From the sequence record OL615013: a stretch of DNA of 64,000 nucleotides; one strand, written 5' to 3'. The stretch's first letter is position 1; every line of letters starts with the position of its first letter. The translations under genes and the position numbers were made by a program. Source of the stretch: Shigella phage ChubbyThor. Positions 5,715-38,036 of this stretch are shown here, piece by piece. The notes below the pieces were generated by a model that ran no database searches, was not told the DNA's origin, and saw only the letters and a list, made by a program, of their open reading frames with translations.

Positions 5715-6242
5715 TCAGATACCGATAAATTCATCAAAAGATCCAACAACCTTCTTCACTGAGATCTTGTCATTCTCAATCAGGAAGTTGCTGTCGTTTT
5801 TGGCTGCTGTGGCCCAGTCATCGGCAAGTTCGTTACCTTCGTGCCCCGCATGACCCTTAACCCATTTTAGTTCAACTTCACAAATTGAACAAACGAGATC
5901 ATAGATTCTGAACAGATCTTTGATGAGTTCAACGTTCTTGTCTGGGAAGCCCTGATACTCCCACTTCGCTCGCCATTCGGTGACGCTCTTGATGGTGTAT
6001 TGACTGTCAGACCAAATTGTTGCCTTTGGTATTCTGCGCTCACCCTTTCCTGAGAATGCCCACAGCAGCTTCAATGCGTTGGTCACACCCAACAACTCGG
6101 CGATGTTGTTGGTGGACGGGGGAGGTAGGTGACCGAAGAACACCTTCCATTGCATACCCGATATTGGCCTGATGACAAATGCCCATCCTGCGGCCTGGTT
6201 GGTCTTCGGGTTAGAACCCCCGTCAGAATAAATTTCTATCAT
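5715..6242 (-). CDS. ribonuclease HI (RnhA-type)
   Basis: SDGGS near N-terminus and GHAGHEGNELAD motif; start moved from track position to ATG at 6240-6242 (MIEIYSDGG...). Confidence 0.75.
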   Translation of the reverse strand: MIEIYSDGGSNPKTNQAAGWAFVIRPISGMQWKVFFGHLPPPSTNNIAELLGVTNALKLLWAFSGKGERRIPKATIWSDSQYTIKSVTEWRAKWEYQGFPDKNVELIKDLFRIYDLVCSICEVELKWVKGHAGHEGNELADDWATAAKNDSNFLIENDKISVKKVVGSFDEFIGI

Positions 6243-6244
6243 GA

Positions 6245-6252
6245 TATAAATA
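6245..6252 (+). promoter_or_regulatory. exact T4-type late-promoter octamer TATAAATA, about 36 nt upstream of the plus-strand gene at 6288
   Basis: tataaata read directly at 6245-6252 in the divergent intergenic region. Confidence 0.3.
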
Positions 6253-6287
6253 TCCCAAACTGGTTTTATAGAAAGAGGAATGAAACT

Positions 6288-7055
6288 ATGGCACCCCGCG
6301 CATATCGTTTCAGTCTCACCGCCCCGCAGATTGAGCAATTGCTCCTTTCTATCAATGATGCTATCAAGTCAGAAGATATCATCTATGATTATGCTGCAGG
6401 TGGGACTGTTGGGCAAGTCGCAGCAGCGTCTGCCGTCAAGAACATGTGGTTGAAGCTCAACGAGATGGTAACAGGCCAAGGCCTCAAAGATGCCATCAAC
6501 GCTGCAGAAGACAGCAACGTGTTCACCGACTATTATAAGTCTTTACTGGATCGCGAAGGCTGGAAATTTATTGGGTCTCCGGCAGATGAACTTGAGCGAG
6601 GCGACATCGACACCGCGAACTTCACGGGTGGTGAGGTCATTCTACTTCAGAAGAACGCTTCAGGCAACCCCGAATTCCAATACTGGAAGCGTACCCCGGT
6701 TGCTGGGGGTGATCCGACCTTCGCCTGGGCTTCGGTCTATGAAGGGAACTCCAACGACTCCAGCATCGAAATCCCGGTGATTGGCACCAGCGTCCTCAAA
6801 GACATTCCCAAGGCTCTCTTCCATATGGTGGAGTTCCGGGTTCATGTCTATGATGAAACGCTGGGGCACTGGCAAGATACAGATGGCAAGGTGGGGTATC
6901 GTGGCGAGGATCTGTTCTACAGCACGTATAACCATGTGCAGACCAAACCGCTCGCCACCATTGACTTCAGTCAAGACACAGATAGCATGACAGTCTCTGT
7001 GACTTCCCTGGAGCCGAATGTCAAATGCCATCTGTCGTTTATCGCTGGTTACTAA
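6288..7055 (+). CDS. hypothetical protein (255 aa), plus-strand gene
   Basis: ATG at 6288 with AGAGGA SD 8 nt upstream; divergent from RNase H gene; track ORF 6129..7055 trimmed to this ATG. Confidence 0.55.
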   Translation: MAPRAYRFSLTAPQIEQLLLSINDAIKSEDIIYDYAAGGTVGQVAAASAVKNMWLKLNEMVTGQGLKDAINAAEDSNVFTDYYKSLLDREGWKFIGSPADELERGDIDTANFTGGEVILLQKNASGNPEFQYWKRTPVAGGDPTFAWASVYEGNSNDSSIEIPVIGTSVLKDIPKALFHMVEFRVHVYDETLGHWQDTDGKVGYRGEDLFYSTYNHVQTKPLATIDFSQDTDSMTVSVTSLEPNVKCHLSFIAGY

Positions 7056-8770
7056 ACCTCAAACACGGCATCAGTAAACCAAGCGGGGAAGAACTCTGGG
7101 TTGCGCATCATCAGTGATTCAAAAGAAGAATCAAGGATGTATGTCGCAGCCCAGTCATTCACGCCCCTGACCGAACGCCCGCACATCTGAACGATACGCA
7201 GTACCGCCATCCTGAAGTACGCCGATGGGTCTACACTGTTGACGTGAGCCACCAGAGGATCACCAAGGTAATCGTATGGAACCTTGATCAAGATCTGAAA
7301 TCGGCTGTAATCGCCTTTGAAGTCATACCCCTCTTCCATAGCCGGACTGGCGATGACACAAGGCGTCTTCGTCCGGAACGCGTGTTCCATGATGTCCATC
7401 AGAGCCTTACGAGTACGAGGAACGTGAATCATATTCCGGTACTTGCTAAACTTCTGTAGAGCCAGGGCGCGGTCATAGCTGACGGTGTGGATGATACCAG
7501 ACTGACCGGGGTGGAATGCGATGATCTCGTCCACGTATTCAGCCAGCTTCTTCATCTCATAGTCACCCATGTTGGACGACATCTTCATGACGGGCATGTA
7601 GTTGACTTTGCGGTTCTCAATCGGGATAGGGTTGCCGATCTGAATCTTGTGGTACTCACCATCACGGATACCCAGTGACCGAGCGTACGAGTCAATCCCA
7701 CAAATGGTCGCCGACATGTGAACATGATAGTCACCCTTGCGGAACAGGCCGAACTGAGACACATCAGAGGCAATGACAGGCTTGAACTGGATCATGCCCT
7801 TGTCCTTCTCCTGCACGATGAAGGTGCTGGCGTTGGTCTGCCCCATGATACCACAGTAGTCACTGAGGTTGTGAAGGGTGTCAATGATGTCAGACAACTT
7901 CATCACCTGGGCTTCAGTCAGGCGCTCGTCCTCTACCAGTTCCTCAAGGGTTTCTAAGAGGGCTTCAACCTTGTCATGCAGGTCGTCAAAGATCGCATGC
8001 ATCTCACCTGTCAGTGAGTACAGCTTACCCAACTCGTAATTCTCTGTGCGTCTGACGATATCCGTGATGATCTCCACGATAGGCACCCCCTCGGGGATTG
8101 TCAGCAACCCCCTTACAGCATTTATGCTGTATTCCATGATCGTGTGCTCTAGGAGCGTAGAGGGCATTTTATGGCACTCGTCAAGGATCAGCATATCGGC
8201 GCGGTTTTCCGGCTTCATACAGATCGTCGTGCACATCTCCACCATCATGGCGGCGTTGGTGCAGCGCAGAGAAGAGATGTCCGTCCAAAGACGACGAGCC
8301 TGAACATATGGGCAACGATTTTTATTACAGTGGCCATCTCGGCATGCCATACGGCACTGGATAGCGTTGTAATACAGGTCAGGACTGATATGACAACGAT
8401 AGTTCTTCTTGCCCTTCAGGATGTCTATCGCCACGGCTTTCTCCGCCGCATACTGATCTTGTAACCCTTTGGTCGGCGTCGTGATAGACGTGCGGAACTG
8501 ACCATACGGATTGCGCTCAAGAACCAGATGGCGAAGCACGTTATGGATGGTAGTGCCAATGAGGGATTTGCCCACACCAGTCGGAGCCTCGATGATCACG
8601 TGTTTGAATTTCTTATTCACAAGGGCATCAACGGCTTCAACGATGCACTCCATCTGGCCGGGGTTGGCGGTGTCGTATGGGAAGGACTCAGTGGCAAGAG
8701 ACTTGATGCGGTCTATGCTAACTGGTCCGACGCCATCAAGCGCCTTGGTATATTGGTTGAATGCTGTCAC
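7052..8770 (-). CDS. DinG/XPD-like superfamily-2 DNA helicase with Fe-S cluster
   Basis: Walker A APTGVGKS, DECH box, four-cysteine cluster CRMACRDGHCNKNRCPY between them. Confidence 0.7.
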   Translation of the reverse strand: MTAFNQYTKALDGVGPVSIDRIKSLATESFPYDTANPGQMECIVEAVDALVNKKFKHVIIEAPTGVGKSLIGTTIHNVLRHLVLERNPYGQFRTSITTPTKGLQDQYAAEKAVAIDILKGKKNYRCHISPDLYYNAIQCRMACRDGHCNKNRCPYVQARRLWTDISSLRCTNAAMMVEMCTTICMKPENRADMLILDECHKMPSTLLEHTIMEYSINAVRGLLTIPEGVPIVEIITDIVRRTENYELGKLYSLTGEMHAIFDDLHDKVEALLETLEELVEDERLTEAQVMKLSDIIDTLHNLSDYCGIMGQTNASTFIVQEKDKGMIQFKPVIASDVSQFGLFRKGDYHVHMSATICGIDSYARSLGIRDGEYHKIQIGNPIPIENRKVNYMPVMKMSSNMGDYEMKKLAEYVDEIIAFHPGQSGIIHTVSYDRALALQKFSKYRNMIHVPRTRKALMDIMEHAFRTKTPCVIASPAMEEGYDFKGDYSRFQILIKVPYDYLGDPLVAHVNSVDPSAYFRMAVLRIVQMCGRSVRGVNDWAATYILDSSFESLMMRNPEFFPAWFTDAVFEV

Positions 8771-8824
8771 TTTCTTCCTCCTATGGGATTCGCCTTTAGT
8801 TTAACCGATTCCCAGGAACGAAAA

Positions 8825-8847
8825 AGCCGGAGTACAATGCTCCGGCT
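8825..8847 (-). terminator. intrinsic terminator hairpin downstream of HU-like gene (works on either strand)
   Basis: AGCCGGAG / CTCCGGCT 8-bp stem with 7-nt loop, flanked by A5 upstream and TTCTCTTTT downstream. Confidence 0.6.
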
Positions 8848-8899
8848 TTCTCTTTTGTCACGCCCCCGCGTTGCAGAGGCCGGACCGAACCAGGTTGAA

Positions 8900-9178: not shown

Positions 9179-9268
9179 CTGGATTTCTCCGTTGGGTTAA
9201 TGTTTACTTTCATGTTCACTACAAGAGGACTACAGTTTAACTAACAAATTTTATTGAATAAAGCGGAA

Positions 9269-9553: not shown

Positions 9554-9554
9554 G

Positions 9555-10238
9555 TTACACCTCCACCGCGTGAGACTTCAGGAGTTCATCAATCGCTTTC
9601 TGACCCATGTAGGAGAATGGGGTGCGCTGGTAGAATGCCCACAGAACCAACTGAACTACAGCGCGGGAACGGGTTTCGGCTCGCATCACCAGGTCGCTGA
9701 AATGAGGAGACTCAGCCGTCCATTGGATCTCTTCGCCCAGGTCTTGATTACAGGTCACAGAGATGCGGAACTTGTTGCACAGATTGTCGACTTCTTTGTA
9801 CGCATCGGTAGACACCCGAAGTTGGTCTGCATGCGCCCATGGTGTCGTGACGATTCTTTCTCCCATCACTTTATCAGAGATAAACCAATCAATGGATTCA
9901 ACAAACTTGCCGAAATGGTCGATGCGATAAATGCAGTCTCCCCCTTCCATAGAACGCATGGCATGATAGCGAGCGTCGATTTCGTTGTTGTGCATCGCGT
10001 TGAAGTCGATGAACACGCGACGCGCCAACACAACATCTTCCGGCTCCAGAGGGATGTATTCCCCTTCGTTGCTAGACCTCCGGATGTTCGGATAATGTAG
10101 AATGCCGCTTAAATGCCCAGTGCAATATACATAACGAGGTCCAACACCCCCGACACGAGCATGAGCGACATAGGATGGTTCTGTGAATCGCAAGTGGCCT
10201 TGATCGGCACCGACGATAATAGAATAAAGGTTTTCCAT
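9555..10238 (-). CDS. hypothetical protein (227 aa)
   Basis: ORF track; ATG at 10236-10238 preceded by conserved leader ...GAGAACTATATC. Confidence 0.5.
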   Translation of the reverse strand: MENLYSIIVGADQGHLRFTEPSYVAHARVGGVGPRYVYCTGHLSGILHYPNIRRSSNEGEYIPLEPEDVVLARRVFIDFNAMHNNEIDARYHAMRSMEGGDCIYRIDHFGKFVESIDWFISDKVMGERIVTTPWAHADQLRVSTDAYKEVDNLCNKFRISVTCNQDLGEEIQWTAESPHFSDLVMRAETRSRAVVQLVLWAFYQRTPFSYMGQKAIDELLKSHAVEV

Positions 10239-10295
10239 GATATAGTTCTCTCAAATGAAAGGGCGACCTTATGATAAGCCGCCCTGGATTATTGA

Positions 10296-11204
10296 TTATT
10301 GGAAATCGCCGACATACATGTTCAGCTTGTCATCCCAGTTCAGAACGATGCGGATCGTTCCGGAATCTTCAGGGAATGACAGCTTAGAGCACATGGCGCG
10401 ATTGACATAAGTCCCGCTCTGGTTGACGTTGTAGTCCTTGCCTTGCATAATACCGAAGCGCTTGAAGTCGCGAGTGACCATCATGTTCAACGTGGTCCAC
10501 GGAATGATGTCACGCAAGGCTTTACACAGGATGATCTTGCCATCCGACCTGAACGACACAAACAGCTCGTTGGCGATACGACGGCGAGCAGGCGGCTCGA
10601 GTTCGCGCAGGGAGATAAATTCAGAGGGATCGTCCAATGCACCCAGGGTGATCATGTCTTCGCGAACTTTATTGACAATTTCAGTTACTGCTGACACGAC
10701 TTCAACTGCCGGATTCGTCTTAAATGGCTCAACAGTCGTGGACATCTTGGATACAGACATCCCGTTGCCGTTGCGCTTCTCTGCATATTGCTCGACGGAC
10801 TTGTCGCTCACCGGAGGCAGTTTGGTGGCAGGAGTTATGACCGGGCTTGCATCTGGTTTCGCCTTTGGGGTACTCCGAGCCGCACGCAGCTTTTCCTGGG
10901 CTTCCAGAATGCGCTCTTGACGAGAAAGTGGAGCCTTTGGGGTGATCTTCGTACTGAAATCTGAAACGCCGACCCAATCACCCTGGTCATTACGCTTGGC
11001 GACCAGAGTCAGTTTGTGGATGATGCCCTGAAGTTTGCTCTCACGCAAGTTGTCGGCATACCAGAACTTCGCGCCCATCTCGAACTTCTCGGCGAAGATC
11101 ACGCGAGCGTCTTCGTGTACCAACATAACTTTGGCTGTGTTGGGGGCAAAAGCCTTATTCTTTTCGATAATCGCCGCAGCGATTGATTTGGTCAGGAGCA
11201 TCAC
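10296..11204 (-). CDS. hypothetical protein (302 aa) with Pro/Lys-rich linker
   Basis: ORF track; long ORF, no recognised motif. Confidence 0.5.
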   Translation of the reverse strand: MMLLTKSIAAAIIEKNKAFAPNTAKVMLVHEDARVIFAEKFEMGAKFWYADNLRESKLQGIIHKLTLVAKRNDQGDWVGVSDFSTKITPKAPLSRQERILEAQEKLRAARSTPKAKPDASPVITPATKLPPVSDKSVEQYAEKRNGNGMSVSKMSTTVEPFKTNPAVEVVSAVTEIVNKVREDMITLGALDDPSEFISLRELEPPARRRIANELFVSFRSDGKIILCKALRDIIPWTTLNMMVTRDFKRFGIMQGKDYNVNQSGTYVNRAMCSKLSFPEDSGTIRIVLNWDDKLNMYVGDFQ

Positions 11205-11252
11205 AGTGTATTCCTTCAGTTCACAATGTAGGGCTAAATTTTAACCCGAAAC

Positions 11253-12338: not shown

Positions 12339-13169
12339 TCATTGGAATTCAACTCCATACCTTTCAAGCCATTTATCACAAGTTAAAGGATCCCAACCAT
12401 TATCTAACCTTCGAATAATCGGATTCACTTTAGCCCAGATCCCAGAAGAATTGGAACCGAATACTTCTTTAATGGCTTCTCCCTTGGTCTTACCTTTCAA
12501 TATATGGTAATGTATGTGGGCTGCCCAACACCACCAATTATCCCTATCCGGAGTCCATCTTGGCTTCTCCCAAGGCATTTGCTCTCTGGAGGTTCTGGTA
12601 AAAGCCTCAACACGTTTCCTTTCTTGGTCCGATGTCAATTTATTGGTTAGGCTCTTTCCATAACAGTGATGGTGCTCTCCTCTCTTGACACCTGCATTTC
12701 TCTTCGCAAAGAATTGTTTCAGTTCAGGGTCTTCCTTGCGCTTGTCTTCATAGAATTTCAGCAGTGAATCTGAAGTTGCATCTTTGGCTGCCTGAGACTT
12801 CTTTTTACCATACATCGGGTTGTTAGCCCCTCTGTTCTCTTCGGACAATCTCGCGGCGTATTTCTTACGCATTTTGGCGAAGAGATGTGAATTAACTCTG
12901 TGGCCATTCCTTCTCAGGATCATCAGCGCCTTTACCATACACGTATCCGGCAGCGCCAGAGCGAGACACACGTGAGCAATATAGTGGACGCGGTGTGGTA
13001 ATTTGATTAAATTGTTCTTATCTTTCTTGAATTGAGGAAATAGGGCGGCTGGAAGGATGTGGTGAAATTCTCCTTCCCCGTTGTAATCTGAATAGGCTGA
13101 AAGCAATTTCACATATTTGCCTACAAAGTGCGGTTTGCCACCTATTGTTAAAAGATATTCTCTTTTCAT
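12339..13169 (-). CDS. HNH-type homing endonuclease-like protein
   Basis: N-terminal EFHHILP...NNLIKLPHRVHYIAH (HNH pattern); NPMYGKK DNA-binding repeat like those in the GIY-YIG endonuclease at 32793. Confidence 0.6.
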   Translation of the reverse strand: MKREYLLTIGGKPHFVGKYVKLLSAYSDYNGEGEFHHILPAALFPQFKKDKNNLIKLPHRVHYIAHVCLALALPDTCMVKALMILRRNGHRVNSHLFAKMRKKYAARLSEENRGANNPMYGKKKSQAAKDATSDSLLKFYEDKRKEDPELKQFFAKRNAGVKRGEHHHCYGKSLTNKLTSDQERKRVEAFTRTSREQMPWEKPRWTPDRDNWWCWAAHIHYHILKGKTKGEAIKEVFGSNSSGIWAKVNPIIRRLDNGWDPLTCDKWLERYGVEFQ

Positions 13170-13761: not shown

Positions 13762-14049
13762 TCACACCTCGTCTTCTTCAGGTCCACCATCAATCAGGAT
13801 ACGAGCGGTGTCGAAACCTTCCCCGCCTGTGTTCAACAGCTTGGTCAGATCATCAAGGGTATCGACAGGACCAAGATCAGCCTTGCGCAGAATGAACTCG
13901 AGAAGGCCGTAGAGCGCTGTTTTGTACCGTTCACCGTCGATATCGTTTTTGACTTTCATTAAGTCAATAATCGCGTCTGTCTCCCTGAAACCTGTTTCAA
14001 CTTCACTGCGCACCATAGAGAATAGAGCGAGTTCTTCGTCCCTTTTCAT
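13762..14049 (-). CDS. hypothetical acidic protein (95 aa)
   Basis: ORF track. Confidence 0.4.
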   Translation of the reverse strand: MKRDEELALFSMVRSEVETGFRETDAIIDLMKVKNDIDGERYKTALYGLLEFILRKADLGPVDTLDDLTKLLNTGGEGFDTARILIDGGPEEDEV

Positions 14050-14420
14050 AACGTACCCCCAACAGAGATCATGAACTCTTCTTCAATGGTCGTGACAGGG
14101 CGGCGGTTGCGGGTTTCGATCATGAAGCCCCAGCCGCCGTCGGCGACGTTGCCAAAGGTCTTGACGCCAAAGGTCTTCTTCCCGTTGGAGCAGGCATAGA
14201 AGTCCAAGATGAACGGACTGCCCTGATTGTCGATCCCACGGTTTACACCATCCGCTACACAGCGCTCAATCATCTTCCCGTTCTTATACAGAACGAGGTC
14301 TTGACCATATGCCTTGAAAGCATAAACGCCGTTGGTAGACACTCCGGTGATGACAGGAGGAGCGGAAACAGCAGAGAAGGAAGCGCCCAGCAGGGCAACG
14401 GCGAGGATTAACTTTTTCAT
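14046..14420 (-). CDS. secreted protein (124 aa)
   Basis: Start moved to ATG at 14418-14420; N-terminus MKKLILAVALLGASFSAVSA signal peptide. Confidence 0.55.
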   Translation of the reverse strand: MKKLILAVALLGASFSAVSAPPVITGVSTNGVYAFKAYGQDLVLYKNGKMIERCVADGVNRGIDNQGSPFILDFYACSNGKKTFGVKTFGNVADGGWGFMIETRNRRPVTTIEEEFMISVGGTL

Positions 14421-14444
14421 GATATAGTCTCTTGGTTTCAAATG

Positions 14445-14466
14445 GGCGGGGTAATCATACCCCGCC
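14445..14466 (-). terminator. GC-rich hairpin (repeat copy 1), terminator-like
   Basis: GGCGGGGTA / TACCCCGCC 9-bp stem, loop ATCA; same 20-mer recurs at about 15006. Confidence 0.5.
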
Positions 14467-14472
14467 GTGGGT

Positions 14473-14979
14473 TTATAGGGTAACAAGTGATACGGTAAAA
14501 ACCATCGTCCCGTCTGTTGCCATTTTTCTTGAAACTGGTATGACGCGAGGCTGGCAGAATATCCATTCTTTCTCCATGGACGCCAAGTCCAGCATATCCA
14601 TTTCTGATTCATCGCCTTTGTTCACAAATTTTTCTAGAGAACCATAGACATTAAGCCCCTCCGGGAGTCCGTTTCGATGTTTGTAACAAATGCGGGCAAC
14701 AGCTTTGGTTCCGTACGATTTAGAAAATTGTTTGGCCACATGCTTCAGTTCACTGAAGCTAAGACAAGAATCCCATGTCTGGAACATGTCGCCTCGTTCA
14801 AACAACATCTCTAAACGCGCAACGTCCTCCTTAGGCAGCCCGCGATAAAGTGTGGTCGTCTGTGGCTCGCGTAATTCTTGCACCAGATCACGGACGGCAG
14901 GGGAAACAGTACCGGGGCGCATGATGTGGGACTTATCATGGGCGAGGTAAAATAAATCTTGAATTTGTTGATCGGTCAT
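14473..14979 (-). CDS. hypothetical protein (168 aa)
   Basis: Track start is TTG; moved to ATG at 14977-14979 preceded by ...GCAGGAACTATATC. Confidence 0.5.
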   Translation of the reverse strand: MTDQQIQDLFYLAHDKSHIMRPGTVSPAVRDLVQELREPQTTTLYRGLPKEDVARLEMLFERGDMFQTWDSCLSFSELKHVAKQFSKSYGTKAVARICYKHRNGLPEGLNVYGSLEKFVNKGDESEMDMLDLASMEKEWIFCQPRVIPVSRKMATDGTMVFTVSLVTL

Positions 14980-15005
14980 GATATAGTTCCTGCATTTCAA
15001 ATAGA

Positions 15006-15023
15006 CGGGGTAATCATACCCCG
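15006..15023 (-). terminator. GC-rich hairpin (repeat copy 2), terminator-like
   Basis: CGGGGTA / TACCCCG stem, loop ATCA; near-identical to 14447..14466. Confidence 0.45.
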
Positions 15024-15038
15024 CCCAAAGTTATAGAA

Positions 15039-15278
15039 TTAACTGATGTGCTTCAGAAGAGCGAAGAGGATCGCGGCCTTGGCTTTCACCTTGCCGACGA
15101 CGCCTGTCTCAACATCGACTTCTTCAGCAACCCACTCTTTGCCCTTCTTGCTGATGATAACGTCACGGCGCTGGGCATATACCTCTTTGGTCGCATACAC
15201 ACGACGGAACCCTTTAGCGCGGAGCAAGCCCCAATTGCGATCAATCTCTACTGAAGTTTCGACCATTTTGTTCTTCAT
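15039..15278 (-). CDS. hypothetical basic protein (79 aa)
   Basis: ORF track; ATG at 15276-15278. Confidence 0.4.
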   Translation of the reverse strand: MKNKMVETSVEIDRNWGLLRAKGFRRVYATKEVYAQRRDVIISKKGKEWVAEEVDVETGVVGKVKAKAAILFALLKHIS

Positions 15279-15401
15279 GATATAATCTTACCTTTCAACC
15301 TGGTGAACCCCATCGTTCGCCAGTTATTGAATAATAGGATATTCCTTAGAGGAAGTAAACCCCTAAAAGTAAAAATCCCCAACAAACGTTGGGGACTTCT
15401 G

Positions 15402-22817: not shown

Positions 22818-24836
22818 TTAGAACACAACTTTCACAGTGCGGTTGAACGAGCCGCTCACCTTCACGAACACGTGGTTGCGTTGGGTGGTAGAGAAGCCCA
22901 GACCGGACAGCTGCTCAGTGCTTGGCTGTACTTTAATCTTACCACCTAACATTTCAAAAACCTTGCGGTGTTTATCAAGTTCCGGCTTCAGATATTCGTT
23001 GTAGAAGCCACGGGTGCCGACAGGGTTAGCACAACCTTCCAGGATGAAGAACACGTGCTTGTTGCCCGTCTGCTCGCCGTCCCAATGGTTTGGTGAGTTC
23101 AGAACCAGCTGTACCTTCTGGAAGACGGAGGTCTTGATGCCCCAGATTTCCTGAGAGCGAGCGTCGTCTTTCAGGGTAGAACTGATGTCGACCACCTGAC
23201 CAGCGCGTACCTGAACCACAACAGCCAACGTGCGGTCTTTGTTTCCCAGACCAGGATGCGAGAAGCGCTTGGTCTGGCCTTTGTATTCAACTTCGATTTC
23301 GAAGCCCACATCGCAGGTTTCGCGCTTGCTGTAGTTGGTGACATAGAACTCATAGTTCCCGTCACGCAGCTTGCATTCATCGCTGAAGAAGATGTTCTCC
23401 ACCGGACGGCGGTTCGGGTCAATACCGTCCATACCGTTCATGTCGATGTCCAGGGTTGCACCAGTTGCCGAACGACGGTTGTTGAAATACACGTGGTTGT
23501 GAAGAGGATCGTTCAGGCTCAGATCCAGGTCGTCGTTGTTATGCCAAGCCAGCGACACACGGAGGAAGCTGTCGACGTTGCCGCCTGCGGTCTTCACGCG
23601 CTCTTTGATGGAGTCGGCCACTTCACCGTTGTATGACCAGCTGAAGCCGTTGTTCCACTTGAACAGGTTAGGAGCACCTGCCGTAGCCGGAGCGATCAGG
23701 GACATCAGGTTGCCAGTGTGAGAGTTTTCAACCAGCACTTCCAGGGAATGCGCCTTTGGCAACACGTTGGTCAGGAAGTCGTCGATGGTGATCTCTTCAA
23801 CCTTGTCCAGGGACTTGGTCGGAGTCTTCACTTCAGACGCCAGCTGAGCAAACGGGTCCATCTTCTTCTGCGCTGCCAGGTCGGCGAACAGAACGTTGTT
23901 GATGGTCAGATCGTCATACACGGCATAACGGCGACCCAGTGAATCGGTCAGACCCAGCGCTTCGACTTCTTTCTGCGCGTTTTCAATCATGGACTTCGTG
24001 ACCAGCGCGGTTGGGCGCTTGTAGTTCGTCGGAGCGACTTTGGCTTCAAAGGACTTCACGGCGGTTTCCAGATCCCGACCTTCATTGAGGTCTACCAACA
24101 GAGAGCCAATCACGGTATTGCGGATGCCGTGAGGGGTGTGTCCGTTTGCACGGTAGCCAGTACGCCAAGCCCACAGAGCGCGTTTCTCTTCTGCAGTTTG
24201 TTCGTACAGGGTCTTGCTCGTCACGAACGCCTGTACTGCTGCTTTGTGCTCTTCACCACGATACAGAGAATTCTGATCAATCAGTTCCAGAACGATTTCG
24301 GCCGATTCCAGAGACAGTTCACGCAGGCCGCGCTCAAACACTTCAATCGCCTGGCGGATTTCACCCTTCTTAGAAGCGATGACATCAGCCCGCAGAACAT
24401 AGCTGGGCAGCAGGTCGGTGTGGAAGTGGTTGTAGGTGCGGACATTACCGTCTTTCATTTCGTGATTCGACTCAACACCGACTTTCTTGGTATCGTTGAA
24501 GTACACGTCGACGATTGCGTGTTGCTTGACATACGCAGACAGCGCCGCGGCGACAACGTCGTATTCGTTACCCAGCTGAATGTTATCCCAGATAGAGATC
24601 ACGTTCAGGTCGGCGTCGATGGTCACCACACCGCCGATGTTACGGATGAATTGTTTACAGCAGGTGCAGTCGTGCTCGGTGCGCTCACGGTAGAGCGGGT
24701 TGGTGCCAGCAGGGAAAGAAGACAGATACAGATCCCACAGAGCATCTTTATCGATGTTGGTCATGAACAGACCAGTTGCTGACATGGCCAGCACATTATT
24801 GTTTACAGCTACTGCGAAGGGCTTAAATTCTGACAT
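22818..24836 (-). CDS. large hypothetical protein (672 aa)
   Basis: Long ORF with ATG start; no polymerase or other motif recognised. Confidence 0.6.
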   Translation of the reverse strand: MSEFKPFAVAVNNNVLAMSATGLFMTNIDKDALWDLYLSSFPAGTNPLYRERTEHDCTCCKQFIRNIGGVVTIDADLNVISIWDNIQLGNEYDVVAAALSAYVKQHAIVDVYFNDTKKVGVESNHEMKDGNVRTYNHFHTDLLPSYVLRADVIASKKGEIRQAIEVFERGLRELSLESAEIVLELIDQNSLYRGEEHKAAVQAFVTSKTLYEQTAEEKRALWAWRTGYRANGHTPHGIRNTVIGSLLVDLNEGRDLETAVKSFEAKVAPTNYKRPTALVTKSMIENAQKEVEALGLTDSLGRRYAVYDDLTINNVLFADLAAQKKMDPFAQLASEVKTPTKSLDKVEEITIDDFLTNVLPKAHSLEVLVENSHTGNLMSLIAPATAGAPNLFKWNNGFSWSYNGEVADSIKERVKTAGGNVDSFLRVSLAWHNNDDLDLSLNDPLHNHVYFNNRRSATGATLDIDMNGMDGIDPNRRPVENIFFSDECKLRDGNYEFYVTNYSKRETCDVGFEIEVEYKGQTKRFSHPGLGNKDRTLAVVVQVRAGQVVDISSTLKDDARSQEIWGIKTSVFQKVQLVLNSPNHWDGEQTGNKHVFFILEGCANPVGTRGFYNEYLKPELDKHRKVFEMLGGKIKVQPSTEQLSGLGFSTTQRNHVFVKVSGSFNRTVKVVF

Positions 24837-24951
24837 GATGTAGTCTTCCTGTTTCAGTTCAAATGTGCGCCCCGTTTGCCAGGGCGCTTCGTTTAAGTGA
24901 GGTCAATAATACGTTGAAAAAAGTTATTGAAGAATGAAGTAAAGGGAATCT

Positions 24952-27142: not shown

Positions 27143-27607
27143 TTATTCGCTTTTGGCCTTTGTAGGCCGGATAATGTATTTTGGAACCAGCTTCCATTCA
27201 GGAACCTGATCGTGTTTAACCACTTTAATGCGTGACATATCGGCGGCTTCGGTGACCTGCTCGGGATGAATGACCTTCACCATGTTCCACTGCTCAAGCA
27301 GCTTGATGATGCGGTTCATCCTCAGGACATCTTCGCGGTTAAACCCGTTGTAATGCCCGTCCAGCATAAACAGATGCTTGAAGTGGACGATATAATACTT
27401 GCCATACTTATGAAGAATATGACAAGTCTGATACAGAGTATTCGGCTCTTGGCGCGTGTTTACCCCAATTCGGCTCAGTGTTTCCTTGATCCCCAGGAAT
27501 ATTCCTGGCCGATCTTGGTTCAATTGAACTTCAACCATACAATCAACGATGCTGGCCTCATCGTTGACGGCTGAAATGTTCAATATGTCTAGCGTATTGC
27601 GCGCCAT
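27143..27607 (-). CDS. regA: translational repressor RegA
   Basis: Recalled similarity to T4 RegA (LYQTCHILHKYGKYYIVHFKHLFMLDG ... EWKLVPKYIIRP); sits after gp62 as in T4. Confidence 0.85.
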   Translation of the reverse strand: MARNTLDILNISAVNDEASIVDCMVEVQLNQDRPGIFLGIKETLSRIGVNTRQEPNTLYQTCHILHKYGKYYIVHFKHLFMLDGHYNGFNREDVLRMNRIIKLLEQWNMVKVIHPEQVTEAADMSRIKVVKHDQVPEWKLVPKYIIRPTKAKSE

Positions 27608-30519: not shown

Positions 30520-32018
30520 TTACCCAGCGCCACCTTCATGAACTCCACAGGGTGGCGCTCTGTCAGGTAGAACTTGTAACGCTCATGAGAGTGCCTGATA
30601 GCGTGGTTCGTGCTGGCGTTGTACGACACATCATCCACTAAGTCCCATATCCACGCGACGTCCTTGGAGGAGTGCTGACGCATCAGACGACCCAATGTCT
30701 GTATGACGCGGATATATGACTTGCTCGGGTGCGCCAGTACAAGGTGGTGTAGCTTCTTGATTGACACACCCTGTTGCATTGTCCCGTATGAAGCCAACAA
30801 CGTGATATCCTCTCCATCCTCCATCGCTTTCTGTATGCGGCGGCGGTCTTCGATCTTCACTTCCCCGTTGATGACAAACACGTTGGGCTTGACTGCGCTC
30901 AGCATATCGTACACAACCATCATGTGGGCGTCAATACGCTCGAACATGATGGCCACGTTCCCTTTCAGATTCAGTGCCATCTTGGCGATCAGTTCGTTGC
31001 GGGACTGGTGTGTAATAAGGTATTCTATTTCCTTGGTATAATCCCCGTCCAGACCAACAGCATCCGCCGGAGTGTGCTTCAACTGAATCATCTTCACTTT
31101 GATGTCAGTGGCGTACCCGAGATTGATAAGGTCGCGAGCCGTGATGATCTTATGGTACGCCCCGAAGTGAGCCACCACCTGAAGCCCGGCAACTTTGGTG
31201 TTCGACAGCGTACCTGTAACCCCCAGGCGCTGGTCGGCGTAGATGCAGTTGTTGAGGATGTAGGACAGTTTCTCAGACTTGGAGGTATGCACTTCATCCA
31301 CCACGATGTCGCCGAACTGGTGGAACCATTCTTTCGGCTGGTCTTGAATGCCCTGCCATGTACTGATGACGATTGGTTTGCTGATTTCCTTTGTCGCGCC
31401 CTCAAAGATCAACTGAGTGTTGGCAACGGGCTTCCAATCGCTGCCGTGTGCGTACTCTTCAAAGTTGTCGTACAGCTGAGTGACCAGGTGAATCGACGGC
31501 ACCACGATAAGCGTCTTCAGAGGACTTTCGAGAGCTTCTCTGCGCTGCCTGTAGTACCGCGCCATGACATACAGAATAAAGGACTTACCAGCACTCGTAG
31601 CCAGTTCACAGACGCATCTGGTTTGACGCATAGCCTTGGCGATGGTGTCGTACTGATAGTCGCGGGTCTCAGCATCGATGTATTCGTGATTTTCGGTGCG
31701 GATCTTTGGATGGAGACTGTCGATGAAGTCATGGATTTCTTGATCTGGGATGTCCTGAATGTACTTCAGAGCCGGATCCAGTTCAATGGTGTATTTGTTG
31801 TTCTTGCAGAACTTGAACACCTCAAACAGTAGGCCGATATCAATCAGACCGGATGACTTGGTGAACAAGCGAACAACCCCGTCCCATTTAGAGAAGGGGT
31901 TGGGAACGAAGTTCGGGTCTTCGAATTTGAAGTAGTCATTCAGCTCTTCCCTGATAGAAAGATCTGCGATGCAACGCATGCGGACTTCGTTAACCTTAAC
32001 AATCTGAATGTCTGCCAT
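30510..32018 (-). CDS. uvsW: UvsW-like SF2 DNA helicase
   Basis: Walker A LATSAGKS, VVDEVH box, KEWFHQFG, LHHLVLAH, TLGRLMRQHSSK, WDLVDD recalled as T4 UvsW-like; start moved to ATG at 32016-32018 with GGGAGA SD. Confidence 0.85.
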   Translation of the reverse strand: MADIQIVKVNEVRMRCIADLSIREELNDYFKFEDPNFVPNPFSKWDGVVRLFTKSSGLIDIGLLFEVFKFCKNNKYTIELDPALKYIQDIPDQEIHDFIDSLHPKIRTENHEYIDAETRDYQYDTIAKAMRQTRCVCELATSAGKSFILYVMARYYRQRREALESPLKTLIVVPSIHLVTQLYDNFEEYAHGSDWKPVANTQLIFEGATKEISKPIVISTWQGIQDQPKEWFHQFGDIVVDEVHTSKSEKLSYILNNCIYADQRLGVTGTLSNTKVAGLQVVAHFGAYHKIITARDLINLGYATDIKVKMIQLKHTPADAVGLDGDYTKEIEYLITHQSRNELIAKMALNLKGNVAIMFERIDAHMMVVYDMLSAVKPNVFVINGEVKIEDRRRIQKAMEDGEDITLLASYGTMQQGVSIKKLHHLVLAHPSKSYIRVIQTLGRLMRQHSSKDVAWIWDLVDDVSYNASTNHAIRHSHERYKFYLTERHPVEFMKVALGNHD

Positions 32019-32043
32019 ACAAAATCTCCCAAGGAATATGGGG

Positions 32044-32050: not shown

Positions 32051-32793
32051 CGATCCGGCCAGACTCCGTTCTGTTCTTTATCCATGCGATGGTACAGACG
32101 AACACGCTCAAACATCTTTGTCAGGATGTCATCGCGGTTGAACTCTATGATGGTTGGCGTCAACGATGACTCGTTGGCAATCACATTGATGAGGCGGGTG
32201 ATCTTGACACCGAACATCTGCTGGAACATAACAGAGTACAAGCACAGCTGGATACTGTAGTCCTCGATCATTCCCCGCGTCTTCATGGTGTTCGATGTCT
32301 TGAAGTCGATGATAGCAGGCTTACCCTCATAAACCCCGATAAGGTCCACTCGACCTGCGAGACCAAGCACCTCGCTATATAACGGGATCTCCTGAGCATA
32401 GATCTTTGTCATCTTGTTCAGATAGGGGAACAGCTGCTTGAACATGAACATGTATTCGCCAGCCGCTTCCAACACTTCTTTCATTGGGCGGTTCTTCAAA
32501 TACAGTTCACATGCAAGGTGCAGCTTCTCCCCTCGGTCAGCGCAACGCATGGTCTCAAGGTCGGCGGCCTCTGCACCCAGCTTCTCCCTCCAAGCCTCAA
32601 GCCATTCATGATCACCAGTACGCCCCAGCATCGTCGTGACAGACGTCAGCTTGACACCAGTTGGTGACACATAATGACGACCGTTCTCCGTCGTCACACA
32701 CTCCAGTTCCTTATGAGGAAGTTCGTACTGCTGGAATGTGTAATGACGATTTTCGAAGTCGTTCAGCTTGCGCAGGGCTTGGAGAGATGCCAT
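32047..32793 (-). CDS. PD-(D/E)xK nuclease (RecB/Cas4-like exonuclease family)
   Basis: GRVDLIGV...IIDFKTS (D...D/E.K) and QLCLYS (QxxxY) motifs. Confidence 0.6.
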   Translation of the reverse strand: MASLQALRKLNDFENRHYTFQQYELPHKELECVTTENGRHYVSPTGVKLTSVTTMLGRTGDHEWLEAWREKLGAEAADLETMRCADRGEKLHLACELYLKNRPMKEVLEAAGEYMFMFKQLFPYLNKMTKIYAQEIPLYSEVLGLAGRVDLIGVYEGKPAIIDFKTSNTMKTRGMIEDYSIQLCLYSVMFQQMFGVKITRLINVIANESSLTPTIIEFNRDDILTKMFERVRLYHRMDKEQNGVWPDR

Positions 32794-33515
32794 TATGTAT
32801 AATCCTTGACAAAGTTATTCCATGCTTCGTCCTCATAAGGATTCCAGCCGGATTTGAATTTGTTAACCATGGCTTGAGACACTCCGATTTTTATACCCAA
32901 TCCTTTATGAATTCTGTAATATCCATGCCCCGCTTTCCAACATTCGAAAGCACTGTCTGCGAATTTCCATTGTTCTCTAGAACCGTATTTTATAGTGGAT
33001 GGGTTATCCCAAGGATGACATCCTTTCATGGGAGATGATTTGCCAAACCAATAGTTCCTTTCACCACCGTTCATTCCTGGGAAACGTTTCCCAAACATTG
33101 GGTGTTCTTTACCCTTTCTTCCTTTCAGGGGACCAGGTTTCCCATAACCGTGATGAAGTTCGCCTCTCTTCCCAAACATGGGGTTCTTTTCGGCGGGGAG
33201 GCTGGTCGTCAACCATATGTCTTTGTCGTTATCTTGAAAATGCCGATTCAAAAGACCTGGTGTTCCCCACAAAGCCTTTATCCTTTCTTGTTCGACTCTG
33301 TATGCTTCTCCCACAGTAGAAAATACTTCTAAATGGTCAACAGAGAAATATTCATCCCCAAACTCTTTTATCATTCTTTGAACGATTTTAGAAGACGTGA
33401 AATATGTGACCCAAAATTCCTTTGGATCACATTTCTTGGCAGTACGAGAACCGATGTATACTTTACCATCTTTGGTGACGACACGGTATACATATGGGAT
33501 TCTATCATGCACCAT
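32793..33515 (-). CDS. GIY-YIG homing endonuclease (Seg-like) with NUMOD-like repeats
   Basis: N-terminal YVYRVVTKDGKVYIGSR; three NPMFGK-type repeats; start moved to ATG at 33515 with GGAGAAAG SD. Confidence 0.75.
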   Translation of the reverse strand: MVHDRIPYVYRVVTKDGKVYIGSRTAKKCDPKEFWVTYFTSSKIVQRMIKEFGDEYFSVDHLEVFSTVGEAYRVEQERIKALWGTPGLLNRHFQDNDKDIWLTTSLPAEKNPMFGKRGELHHGYGKPGPLKGRKGKEHPMFGKRFPGMNGGERNYWFGKSSPMKGCHPWDNPSTIKYGSREQWKFADSAFECWKAGHGYYRIHKGLGIKIGVSQAMVNKFKSGWNPYEDEAWNNFVKDYT

Positions 33516-33957
33516 CGAGGTACTTTCTCCAATCAATCGCATTCTTCACTTCGTATCCCAGCTTGTTCAGGCGATCCAAACAAGTCTCGATGAACTTGAC
33601 TTTTGCTTTTTGTTCTTGTAACAGAACAGACAGTTCTACATAGTCATCGTCGGCTTTGACCCATGTGTCCAGGTCAGACTTCAGGGGGCGAACCTTCAGG
33701 GGGCGCTCTGCGTAGATGTTCGGGGGTAACTCCCCTGCATAGTAGCGGCGCAGATAGAGATCGATCTGGCGGAAGCGCCCGTTGAGGAATTCAAGATAAC
33801 GCCCCTCACGCAGATAATGCCGTTGTACGGCCATCCAAGAGCGCCCGATTTTCAGTGAGATCTGGTCAAGGTTCATGTCTTCTGGGTCCACTGTAATCAG
33901 CGGCTCCAGTTCGTTCATGATGTCCTCGGTTGCCATTGTCTGTAGTTGTTCTTTCAT
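33505..33957 (-). CDS. uvsY: UvsY-like recombination mediator
   Basis: Recalled resemblance to T4 UvsY (LYLRRYYAGE vs ARLDYYSGRG; C-terminal CLDRLNKLGYEVKNAIDWRKY); same 150-aa size class; downstream of uvsW region. Confidence 0.55.
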   Translation of the reverse strand: MKEQLQTMATEDIMNELEPLITVDPEDMNLDQISLKIGRSWMAVQRHYLREGRYLEFLNGRFRQIDLYLRRYYAGELPPNIYAERPLKVRPLKSDLDTWVKADDDYVELSVLLQEQKAKVKFIETCLDRLNKLGYEVKNAIDWRKYLDGA

Positions 33958-33999
33958 AAAATATCCCAGCTTGTCAATGTCATAGAATTATACCGTATT

Positions 34000-34500: not shown

Positions 34501-34538
34501 AATAGCACCTTTTGCTGTGGAGATATTTTGTGACCCTG

Positions 34539-35180: not shown

Positions 35181-35181
35181 A

Positions 35182-35910: not shown

Positions 35911-35913
35911 AGA

Positions 35914-35942
35914 AAATACCCCCATGGATGATGGGGGTATTT
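35914..35942 (-). terminator. perfect 12-bp hairpin directly upstream of a start codon
   Basis: AAATACCCCCAT / ATGGGGGTATTT arms with 5-nt loop; minus-strand RNA continues UCU then AUG. Confidence 0.5.
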
Positions 35943-35944
35943 AG
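35938..35944 (-). promoter_or_regulatory. CTAAATA late-promoter-like motif upstream of 35182..35910
   Basis: minus-sense CCTAAATACCCCC, part of hairpin, about 28 nt upstream of ATG. Confidence 0.4.
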
Positions 35945-35948
35945 GTGA

Positions 35949-36116
35949 TCATGGCAGTTTGTAAACGAAGTTGGACCAGAACTTCCGAGCGAACTTCTTG
36001 GCATAGACCTTCCAGTCGGCGTATTCGCCTTCCTTCAGGTCATTGTAGGTCTCGAACCCTACTGCTCCCAGGAAGTACGCCGTGAAGATATAGCAGAACA
36101 GATTGACGACAAACAT
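35949..36116 (-). CDS. small hydrophobic protein (55 aa)
   Basis: Not in ORF track; ATG at 36114-36116 with GGAG SD about 9 nt upstream; translation MFVVNLFCYIFTAYFLGAVGFETYNDLKEGEYADWKVYAKKFARKFWSNFVYKLP. Confidence 0.4.
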   Translation of the reverse strand: MFVVNLFCYIFTAYFLGAVGFETYNDLKEGEYADWKVYAKKFARKFWSNFVYKLP

Positions 36117-36157
36117 GATGTATCTCCGCTGTGTGAACTCAAATTATTTATGGTATG

Positions 36158-36580
36158 TTACAAAAGGCGCTTGGTCTTCGGCTTGCCCATCAGTGTGATG
36201 TCCACAGGGAGGCCAGCTTTCTTGCAACGGTTGATCATGTCCAGGGTGCCAGTGGACGAGCCGTCCCACATCGCAATCGGATACACTTCCAGCTTGGTCT
36301 GCCTGACGAGATCCAATGCCTTGTCTAACATGTCCTGATTGCGTTTGTTGCCCATCCCTTTCCCATACTTTTCATAATAGCTCGGAGGGATTGGCATAGG
36401 AGTGATATGAACATAATTGATTTCAGCCCAATCACGGCAAATCGTGTCGACACCCGTGGCCTCACCCTCGATCAACGTATAGACTTCATGAGGATCGAGG
36501 AGTTCGTCCAGCTTGGCGAATACCTTATCCCGCTCGGTGATTGAGCGGGAACCTGTAACGAGTACGATATATTTCTTCAT
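36158..36580 (-). CDS. SLOG/DUF2493-like Rossmann-fold protein
   Basis: MKKYIVLVTGSR...GEATGVD...YGKGMGNKRNQDML...AMWDGSSTGTLDMI pattern; track start is GTG, moved to ATG at 36578-36580. Confidence 0.5.
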   Translation of the reverse strand: MKKYIVLVTGSRSITERDKVFAKLDELLDPHEVYTLIEGEATGVDTICRDWAEINYVHITPMPIPPSYYEKYGKGMGNKRNQDMLDKALDLVRQTKLEVYPIAMWDGSSTGTLDMINRCKKAGLPVDITLMGKPKTKRLL

Positions 36581-36585
36581 GGAAC

Positions 36586-36906
36586 TCACAGCGCCCCAAG
36601 ATTGCCGATGACATACAGGGAGCACAGAGGAGTGCCTGACGAACGGGGTTCGATTGTCATCCCGCTCAGGCGGATCAGTTCCAGTAAGCCGTCAGTGGTT
36701 TGATACGCGCGTGTCGAACCGTTCGGGCGATAAAGCTCCAGCTCGGTTCTTCCTTCCTTTAATGCATTACGGATACGAGCGAACACACTGTGGTCGCCGA
36801 ACTTCTGTTTCAGAAGGTCCAGCTTGGTGACCAGTCGACGACGCGATTTGCGCGCACGAGGGTTCTCTTTTACGACCGCTTCTAAAATTGGGATGCTGTT
36901 AGCCAT
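36586..36906 (-). CDS. hypothetical protein (106 aa)
   Basis: ORF track; ATG start. Confidence 0.4.
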   Translation of the reverse strand: MANSIPILEAVVKENPRARKSRRRLVTKLDLLKQKFGDHSVFARIRNALKEGRTELELYRPNGSTRAYQTTDGLLELIRLSGMTIEPRSSGTPLCSLYVIGNLGAL

Positions 36907-36965
36907 GATAAAGTCCTCTATTTGTAGGGGATAGGGTATGCGGTTAACATACCCCGTTCAAAGGT

Positions 36966-37247
36966 TTAGAACAAATGCTCGCCTTCCACATGGTATGCTA
37001 ACACGCCGTCAGAACATTCAAAATACATGTTATCATATTCCCACAGAGCGGTGATTTCTTCACCCTGGCAAACTACCGAAAACTTCGGCTGGCTGGCCTT
37101 AACTGGAAATTTTTCAGGGGAAGAGATTGGGGTGAATTTGGCATTTCTGACGGCCATACCAACAAATTGCTGCAATGTTACTTTGTAACGAGAGTGGGTG
37201 ATAGTACCAGCATTCAGGGCTTCGATCAATTGCGCTTTAGTTGTCAT
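36966..37247 (-). CDS. hypothetical protein (93 aa)
   Basis: ATG preceded by conserved leader AAGGAACTATATC. Confidence 0.45.
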   Translation of the reverse strand: MTTKAQLIEALNAGTITHSRYKVTLQQFVGMAVRNAKFTPISSPEKFPVKASQPKFSVVCQGEEITALWEYDNMYFECSDGVLAYHVEGEHLF

Positions 37248-37350
37248 GATATAGTTCCTTCATTTCAGAGTCAGTGTTGTGCTGCTTATGGAATGAAGTA
37301 TACGGGGTTTATTGAAGAAGTAAACCCCGTTTATTGAATAAATTTAAAAT

Positions 37351-37587
37351 TTATTTGAAGCGATCAGGAAGGGCGTCGTGAACCTCGGCGCTCAGCACCA
37401 GAAACTTACCATCCGTTGTTGGGAAGCAATAGTCTTTATTGATGTGACGCAAGTGTTCAGCTACAGCTGCCACGCAGTCATCTGTCACGTCGGTCTTCTC
37501 ACCAACCCACATGCTGGTTTTGGTGTTCAACCTGCCCTGGAATATAGTACCAGTCAGAGGGCTTGCGCCGATCTTTTTGATAATCAT
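37351..37587 (-). CDS. hypothetical protein (78 aa)
   Basis: ORF track. Confidence 0.4.
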   Translation of the reverse strand: MIIKKIGASPLTGTIFQGRLNTKTSMWVGEKTDVTDDCVAAVAEHLRHINKDYCFPTTDGKFLVLSAEVHDALPDRFK

Positions 37588-37595
37588 GTTTGACC

Positions 37596-38036
37596 TCAGT
37601 TAATACGGAACAGATGTGGATAACCACCAGGATGACCCTGACCCGTAACGAACACGTCGAACTTCGAACCCTTGATCAGGCCAGGCAGATTGCCAGAGTC
37701 CAGCAGTTCGCGGATCTGATCCATCGCCAGCATCCAGTTCTTAGCAGGTTCAGCTTCAGCCTCTCCACGATTGAGGACGAGTTCACCTTCAGAATAATAC
37801 TTCCCGCTGTCTTTCATGTAGTACAGCTTGATATGGATATACTGAGGGGATGGGACCAAACGCCAGCCGTCATCAATCAGATCCTGGCGATCATTATCCA
37901 GGGACTGGTAATCGATCTCACCAGACGCCAGACCATAGCTGCGCATGTAGCGGAACTTCTCAACACGGTCTTTCACGTCAGAGATGAAGAACTCCTTCGT
38001 GGCAGGACTGATGAAAATGTATTTCTCTTTTGACAT
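37596..38036 (-). CDS. hypothetical protein (146 aa)
   Basis: ATG preceded by conserved leader AAGGATCTATATC. Confidence 0.45.
   Translation of the reverse strand: MSKEKYIFISPATKEFFISDVKDRVEKFRYMRSYGLASGEIDYQSLDNDRQDLIDDGWRLVPSPQYIHIKLYYMKDSGKYYSEGELVLNRGEAEAEPAKNWMLAMDQIRELLDSGNLPGLIKGSKFDVFVTGQGHPGGYPHLFRIN

Follow-up and report, generated by a model that had tools for sequence, protein, structure and literature searches.

A conserved CTATATC spacer abutting start codons in Shigella phage ChubbyThor: probably the last part of a recurring early expression cassette in the Ackermannviridae

Why do at least seven minus-strand genes of Shigella phage ChubbyThor (sequence record OL615013) carry the same few nucleotides directly in front of their start codon? 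The stretch analysed here (64,000 nucleotides (nt), hereafter the window) derives from an Agtrevirus (Ackermannviridae, Aglimvirinae), a ViI-like and not a T4-type phage. It shares 95–97% identity with Shigella phages MK-13 and Ag3 and with Salmonella phage SKML-39, has a G+C content of 50%, carries nearly all of its genes on the minus strand, and contains T4-like replication and late-transcription genes. The original prediction for this stretch, made from the sequence, held that the shared leader could be an operator of the translational repressor RegA, with duplication of a regulon or a Rho-independent restart signal as alternatives. On balance, we find it probable that the leader is the translation-initiation end of a repeated Ackermannviridae early expression cassette, which doubles as a gene-swap junction and resembles the promoter-early stem-loop (PeSL) regulatory cassettes described for T4-type phages (Arbiol et al. 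2010, PMC2839356; Comeau et al. 2014, PMC4122927).

Start sites were assigned after those annotated in MK-13 and Ag3, yielding 76 curated starts in the window, and the whole Ag3 genome (NC_013693; 158,006 bp) was put together from annotated pieces to give 216 starts. A start was assigned to the leader class when the sequence before its ATG matched CTAYATC at 6 or more of the 7 positions, and for cross-genus comparison related loci were retrieved around two anchor genes.

A discrete class of start-codon spacers

All seven ATG codons that had been singled out, at positions 6242, 10238, 14420, 14979, 15278, 37247 and 38036 on the minus strand, are indeed abutted by TATATC, and each of them is an annotated start codon in MK-13 and/or Ag3. 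The string TATATCATG occurs in seven exact copies in the window, compared with 0.33 expected from dinucleotide-preserving shuffles (n = 100), none of which reached seven. All seven copies are located on the minus strand at gene starts, and there is no further exact match in the window. An independent-position model of the 76 window starts predicted only 0.27–0.64 such sites where seven are observed, with the caveat that the general spacer consensus of all window starts is itself (T/A)ATATC and that ATC precedes 17 of the 76.

The seven sites are perfect-consensus members of a wider spacer preference, but because the distribution of scores against CTAYATC among the window starts is bimodal (four starts at score 5, six at score 6 and six at score 7), they also form a discrete class. 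Of the 76 window starts, 12 belong to this class; in Ag3 it takes in 21 of 216. Its further members in the window are found at 24836 (CTACATC), 36116 (ATACATC), 36906 (CTTTATC), 27126 (CTAAATC) and 21054 (CTACATT). Ag3 carries ten exact copies of TATATCATG, every one of them at the start of a minus-strand gene, and TACATC at six more starts. Alignment of these ten Ag3 leaders at the ATG yielded the extended consensus TTTGAA(A/C)(N)GAAGGAAC-TATATC-ATG-AC, in which the C at –7 is present in nine leaders, and the A at –8 and the A at +4 in eight each.

The remaining parts of the leader had been described as a Shine–Dalgarno (SD) sequence about 8 nt upstream and, for several of the genes, a TTTGAAA and a GC-rich hairpin. 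Purines do lie 8–9 nt upstream in six of the seven leaders, but 6242 has only a weak SD, at a distance of about 11 nt. The TTTGA(A) element was confirmed, with TTTGA located between –34 and –10 in 6 of the 10 Ag3 family leaders versus 12 of the 206 other starts (p = 2e-5). The hairpin holds for four of the seven sites, and is missing at 6242, 37247 and 38036.

A direct-repeat search of the window independently recovered the leaders as families D2, D5 and D8, of 25, 30 and 50 nt, and the copies at 14975–14999 and 37243–37267 are 96% identical. The 17-mer GAAGGAACTATATCATG returned 23 exact matches in IMG/VR, 14 of them in contigs of 152–161 kb, which corresponds to the size of Ackermannviridae genomes. 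An Rfam scan of the whole window at gathering thresholds gave no match. An antisense or small-RNA partner was considered and rejected, since GATATAG elsewhere yields only isolated coding-region matches that lack extended complementarity. That the motif might be no specific feature at all, and reflect chance or an A+U-rich SD spacer generic to the genome, would fit the overall start consensus and the presence of ATC before 18–22% of starts. However, seven observed sites against 0.3–0.6 expected, the bimodal scores, flanks conserved over 25–50 nt and invariance across genera effectively refute this explanation, which we regard as vanishingly improbable.

The carriers had also been called early genes, and their surroundings agree with this: they appear to be early, with sigma70- or T4-early-like promoters upstream, and never stand behind a late box. 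In Ag3, leader-class spacers (at least 6/7) precede 18 of the 88 genes that lack a late box and follow an intergenic gap of 40 nt or more, versus 3 of the 128 others (p = 2e-5), and none of the 21 genes with a late-promoter box of the CTAAATA type. In the window, such a late-promoter-like box, (C)TAAATA(CCCC), is found 20–40 nt above structural or late genes and uvsW, with starts at 32018, 35910, 63855, 52729, 42190, 48433 and 59230. Its presence is consistent with the phage-encoded gp55 and gp33 homologues.

The leader could in principle be read at the DNA level, either with TTGAAA and TATATC as –35 and –10 elements, which they resemble as sigma70 hexamers, or with CTATATC as a variant of the late core CTAAATA, to which it is identical at five of seven positions and which occurs above structural genes. 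In the first case, however, the two hexamers are separated by 8–9 nt instead of 16–18, and with a –10 directly at the ATG, transcripts would begin within the open reading frame (ORF). The late variant is at odds with the absence of leader-class spacers among the 21 late-box genes and with the fixed distance to the ATG. Moreover, wherever the motif occurs, an SD at a fixed distance and a long ORF go with it. Promoter readings of the motif are effectively excluded, and we give them a very small probability.

Promoters, hairpins and gene-swap junctions

The proposed cassette would run from a T4-early-like promoter into a 5′ untranslated region (5′UTR) of 45–55 nt, which usually opens with a GC hairpin and continues through (T)TTGAA, AAGGA and CUAYAUC to AUG(A). 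Two of the seven sites have strict sigma70-type matches upstream, namely TTTACT-N17-TATTAT above 15278 and TTTACT-N16-TATACT above 37247. The full cassette of the 79-amino-acid (aa) hypothetical protein starting at 15278 (ORF 15039–15278; cassette 15276–15359, minus strand) combines this promoter (15359–15331) with an imperfect 5′ hairpin (approximately 15300–15323), GTTGAAAGGTAAGA, TTATATC and the ATG, and a separate true terminator precedes the promoter. The equally full cassette of a 93-aa hypothetical protein (ORF 36966–37247; cassette 37245–37350, minus strand) consists of an UP-like ATTCAATAAA, GTTTACT-N16-TATACT (37324–37297), an unstructured 49-nt 5′UTR TTCATTCCATAAGCAGCACAACACTGACTCTGAAATGAAGGAA, CTATATC and the ATG.

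In the cassette of a 227-aa hypothetical protein (ORF 9555–10238; cassette 10236–10300, minus strand; repeat family D5), –10-like AATAAT boxes are followed by a predicted 5′ hairpin (10260–10285), TTTCATTTGAGAGAA, CTATATC and the ATG. That of a 124-aa hypothetical protein (ORF 14046–14420; cassette 14417–14500, minus strand; repeat families D2 and D8) reads TTTACC-N16-TATAAA, hairpin (14445–14466), CATTTGAAACCAAGAGA, CTATATC and ATG, and is a 50-nt direct repeat, 86% identical, of the cassette belonging to a 168-aa Alt-like ADP-ribosyltransferase ORF (ORF 14473–14979; cassette 14976–15040, minus strand). The latter is composed of TATAAC, a hairpin (15002–15027), TATTTGAAATGCAGGAA, CTATATC and the ATG.

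The promoter can be extended to an UP-like (T)ATTGAATAA, GTTTACTTCTTCAATAA, N4–6 and CGTATACT; its –35 is GTTTACT, followed by the conserved spacer TCTTCAATAA(C) and a –10 reading CGTATACT, TATTAT or TATAAT. This extended promoter is highly conserved and recurs across Ackermannviridae genera; sites are located at 37297–37350 and 15331–15359 in the window, and at 144205, 100550, 79822 and 64905 in Ag3. Strict GTTTACTTCTTCAATAA promoters have a leader-class or near-variant spacer at the first gene behind them in all four cases in Ag3 and in the single case in the window, and CTAYAYY is present in 17 of 22 distinct promoter-to-first-ATG units drawn from several genera, with anchor identity down to 50–56%.

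The GC hairpins at 10238, 14420, 14979 and 15278 have folding energies of –14 to –20 kcal/mol (z –2.5 to –3.1), and at these four of the seven sites their onset 4–5 nt past a –10-like box would place them where the transcript is predicted to begin. The three hairpin-less leaders (6242, 37247 and 38036) fold more weakly than shuffled controls. Because a U-rich tail follows only the 10238 hairpin, one of the four, the hairpins are mostly not canonical terminators, which leaves the suggested Rho-independent restart signal as a weak alternative. Duplication of a regulon comes closest to the data, in the form of repeated promoter-hairpin-leader cassettes.

Two observations concern subtypes of this region. 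The hairpin GGCGGGGTATGATTACCCCGCC (14445–14466 and 15002–15027) keeps a loop-proximal GGGGTATGAT(T/A)(A/G)CCCC in several genera (orthologues at loci L012, L016–L018, L020–L022 and L029), while the hairpins of the other leaders are unrelated in sequence; the GGCGGGGTATGATTACCCCGCC loop may be read by something, or its cassette may have spread recently. The hairpin-less 5′UTR subtype (TTCATTCCATAAGCAGYACRACAC..., window 37248–37296) is repeated in Ag3 at 100473–100522 and 64828–64876, and is conserved across genera at approximately 80% or more, though without an obvious motif.

Downstream of the hairpin the ribosome-binding site appears to be open. In the centroid fold, the SD, spacer and AUG are unpaired at five of the seven sites, the exceptions being 10238 and 15278, where the stretch beginning at the AUG and part of the spacer, respectively, pair with downstream coding sequence. 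In Ag3, the energy needed to open the region from –18 to +12 has a median of 6.7 kcal/mol in the 21 leader-class genes versus 9.3 in the others (p = 5e-5).

The same cassettes lie at points where gene content changes between relatives. The Alt-like ORF, present in the window and MK-13 and absent from Ag3, is flanked by two cassette copies. Homology with Ag3 spans the 79-aa gene, promoter, hairpin and leader up to 14976, a single base beyond the ATG. It is regained at 14478, three bases 5′ of the Alt-like ORF's stop codon. Ag3 for its part carries an additional ORF of 94 aa, which has a TATATC cassette too. At 37247, related loci from several genera, 14 in number, can be aligned with the window across the upstream gene, the promoter and the 50-nt leader as far as 37244/37240 (ATG+1 to +5), and the alignment picks up again from 36976. 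Behind this leader there are, the window included, four unrelated ORF families in all, with a distribution that departs from phylogeny: MNNMPTTKT.. (95–99 aa), M.TP.I...AFD.F.. (105–154 aa), MARSIHDF.. (88 aa) and MTTKAQLTEALNAG.. (93 aa, that of the window). At 10238, two ORF alleles (74% and 37% identity) stand behind the same promoter, hairpin and leader within one genus.

In such a cassette, the 5′-terminal hairpin would stabilise promoter-proximal early mRNAs, the unstructured and optimally spaced ribosome-binding site would give strong and uniform early translation, and the identity of 25–80 nt among copies would provide a portable junction for phage recombination, by which accessory ORFs could be inserted, deleted or replaced, a role already suggested for the PeSLs of T4-type phages. 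With AAGGA and 8 nt behind it, the leader is at the 5-nt "aligned spacing" that is optimal in Escherichia coli. Early timing, a 5′-terminal position of the hairpin, a strong ribosome-binding site and recombination between copies are what we infer from these features.

Several points weigh against this proposal. A strict –35/–10 match is found at only two of the seven window sites, the others having –10-like boxes only. The 6242 leader is a poor fit to the family, and the 38036 leader overlaps the stop codon (TGA, 38049–38051) of the preceding gene and has neither promoter nor hairpin. In a covariation analysis of nine orthologues of the 10238 gene (RNAalifold), MAFFT misaligned hairpins of different length, while the individual folds were strong. 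A global test for breakpoints within 12 nt of leader-class ATGs compared with other starts gave only a trend (p = 0.07), with a signal that comes mostly from 14979 and 37247. In the literature we found no transcriptional start sites, expression-timing or translation data and no transcriptome for Ackermannviridae phages. Finally, a pure "good ribosome-binding site" model leaves the C residues at –7 and –1, which are kept more strictly than the SD, unexplained.

The closest known counterparts of the proposed cassette are the PeSLs. The consensus of T4 and PST early promoters is TTTACW-N17-TAYWAT (PMC4122927), which the extended promoter described above fits, and in both systems the promoter lies within the repeated unit and the SD and start codon stand at the 3′ end of the element. 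Both are short composites that a genome carries in many copies, mainly in regions of small accessory early ORFs, and both bound ORF indels or replacements between close relatives. In contrast to PeSLs, which belong to Tevenvirinae-type phages, the present cassettes are found in Ackermannviridae. Moreover, the PST stem-loop is a terminator upstream of the promoter (PMC4122927), whereas here the hairpin is located downstream of the –10, mostly without a U-tract, and the 37247 subtype has no hairpin. The conserved part here also runs through a near-invariant SD–AUG spacer, and the junction falls exactly at the ATG.

A second comparison is with stabiliser hairpins at the 5′ terminus, of the ompA 5′UTR type, and with strong phage ribosome-binding sites such as the T7 gene 10 leader AAGGAGAUAUACAUAUG. 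The likeness consists of a hairpin that lies a few nt or less from the predicted 5′ end and precedes an SD, spacer and AUG in single-stranded, A+U-rich RNA, and the alternating UAUAU of the spacer recalls the AUAUAC of the gene 10 spacer. The difference is that the present module is reiterated before many genes and across genera, and that its stabilising and enhancing effects are inferred.

Candidate readers of the spacer

The behaviour of the spacer across genera raises the further question of whether something reads its sequence. Exact TATATCATG copies number 4–6 per 22 kb in Aglimvirinae-like loci and 0–3 in a group at 82–84% identity, and are sporadic beyond that; orthologous leaders persist with a drifting spacer (CTATATC, CTATATT, ATATATT, ATACATT, CTATACC, TTATAAC). 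Among orthologues of the gene starting at 38036 (46–100% aa identity), –7 is C in 13/13, –6 is T in 12/13, –5 is A in 13/13, –4 is T or C, –3 is A in 13/13, –2 is T in 13/13 and –1 is C in 11/13, while the SD purines vary. Because the spacer is better conserved than the SD, the constraint appears to be on the spacer sequence and not on composition alone, and a sequence-specific reader, with RegA or another factor as candidates, is likely to be layered on top of the cassette.

In very distant relatives (35–50% anchor identity), SD-N-TA(T/C)ATC-ATG is found behind hairpins or promoters. In the IMG/VR contigs L040, L042, L043 and L044, TA(T/C)ATC abuts the ATG behind hairpins in leaders of the type ..TGAAGA..GAGG... 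The spacer preference may, judging from these matches, be older or wider than the Ackermannviridae.

That the phage encodes RegA, as had been noted, proved correct: the homologue is located at 27143–27607 (minus strand; 154 aa; Pfam PF01818, E = 1.9e-34; T4 RegA structure PDB 1REG, E = 4e-26), in the same gp45-gp44-gp62-regA gene order as in T4. RegA of T4 and RB69 binds A+U-rich, unstructured RNA between the SD and AUG, and several T4 RegA targets share the spacer AAAUUAUG (PMC3014915). The spacer of the present leaders occupies –7 to –1 at all sites, directly 5′ of the AUG, and CUAUAUC is A+U at five of seven positions. An operator at which the RegA homologue bound CUAYAUC-AUG (leader RNA UGAAAUGAAGGAACUAUAUCAUGAC), competed with the 30S subunit and repressed early mRNAs, much like T4 RegA on spacers of the AAAUU-AUG type, would fit the presence and gene order of the homologue, its conserved T18, R21 and W81, the unstructured leader with its T4/RB69-like position between SD and AUG, and a spacer that is stricter than the SD.

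However, K14G, R91V and F106H alter three of the six functionally implicated residues. The start context of regA itself, GGGGAATGAGTC-ATG, contains no leader, and the motif is absent at the starts of regA, gp44, gp45, gp62, rIIA, rIIB, dexA and cd, the orthologues of T4 RegA targets. Since RegA may control a different set of genes in this lineage, this absence lowers the RegA hypothesis and does not exclude it. The selected RegA ligands, AAAAUUGUUAUGUAA for T4 and AAUAAUAAUAA for RB69 (PMC3014915), offer no likeness either: compared with these SELEX products, the leader has no poly(A) and no UAA repeats, and carries C at –7 and –1. In addition, the carriers are mostly small, promoter-adjacent accessory genes, while T4 targets belong largely to replication and nucleotide metabolism. 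The leaders share with T4 and RB69 RegA operators their position between SD and AUG, their A+U-rich unstructured RNA, their occurrence in several pre-replicative genes and an encoded RegA, and differ in that T4 sites follow no strict consensus, whereas a near-invariant and unrelated spacer is found here. We therefore rate a RegA operator as doubtful, though it would be compatible with the cassette model, in which RegA could be the reader of the spacer. The broader idea that CUAYAUC is an operator through which a sequence-specific regulator of translation, most plausibly a diverged RegA, governs an accessory early regulon of about 20 genes is similarly tentative.

A different reader could be an endoribonuclease that inactivates mRNAs, or some other spacer-binding factor, following a RegB-like logic. 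In T4, early mRNAs carry the SD and spacer motif GGAGRAYARAA, which is cleaved by RegB with S1, shutting off early translation (PMC3014915). This precedent of a long conserved motif in early genes, together with the restriction of the leader class to non-late genes and a spacer that is more conserved than the SD, speaks for such a target, and the likeness lies in an extended SD and spacer that mark early mRNAs. The sequences differ, however, with only GGA in common with the RegB consensus, and no RegB-like gene is present among the Ag3 or MK-13 annotations, so that we consider this option quite improbable.

Other leaders in the window and implications

The two leaders that depart most from the cassette pattern are those of 6242 and 38036. 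The first (6240–6270, minus strand), ..CTATAAAACCAGTTTGGGATATT-TATATC-ATG, belongs to an RNase H gene (ORF 5715–6242) and is an outlier of the family, with T at –7, a weak and distant SD and no hairpin. The RNase H Pfam domain spans residues 3–147 of the long ORF starting at 6242, which supports this long start. MK-13 likewise annotates the long ORF starting at TATATC-ATG, and the shorter start annotated in Ag3 (71722, corresponding to window 6155; long ORF 71282–71809) is, judging from this domain, probably wrong. RNase H orthologues in some other genera have a GTG start behind the same TTTATATC. Because only 45 nt (6243–6287) separate the divergent start codons at 6242 (minus) and 6288 (plus), the promoters of both genes must overlap neighbouring coding sequences. 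The second leader, CATTTTGAACTGAAGGAT-CTATATC-ATG (38034–38060, minus strand), precedes a 146-aa hypothetical protein (ORF 37596–38036).

Near-variant leaders, all on the minus strand, precede a 672-aa protein (ORF 22818–24836; leader 24834–24880, with a hairpin, CACATTTGAACTGAAACAGGAAGA, CTACATC and ATG), a 55-aa ORF (35949–36116; leader 36114–36140, spacer ATACATC) and a 106-aa ORF (36586–36906; leader 36904–36960, with the hairpin GGGGTATGTTAACCGCATACCC and ..AATAGAGGA-CTTTATC-ATG). The leader orthologous to that of 24836 reads TATATC in some other genera. According to Pfam and PHROGs, the proteins encoded behind the leaders include RNase H and a weak Alt-like ADP-ribosyltransferase match, the others being mostly small and of unknown function. 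Four minus-strand ORFs without a matching Ag3 start (12339–13169, 32793–33542, 38340–39812 and 45745–46452) look like free-standing homing or other endonucleases, with similarity to NUMOD3, SegE-type GIY-YIG, Vsr/DUF559/MTES_1575-like (sub-threshold) and GIY-YIG proteins; none of them has a TATATC leader.

The genome papers of Ag3, LIMEstone and CBA120 do not describe the leader. The CBA120 paper reported early promoters as not identifiable by informatics, and MotA and AsiA as missing (PMC3184105). Early gene control in ViI-like phages is essentially uncharacterised, and the leader and its promoter together offer a testable definition of an early unit. If a protein does read the spacer, this would represent a new specificity for a RegA-type repressor. 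Should the tentative regulon exist, an ORF that recombined into such a slot would gain early transcription, high translation and a timed shut-off at once, making the slot a plug-and-play socket. In each genome the leader flags approximately 20 co-regulated accessory genes as likely candidates for host takeover or anti-defence functions, and it locates hot slots of gene exchange between genera. The module may also serve as a compact expression part for engineering phages that are therapeutic candidates.

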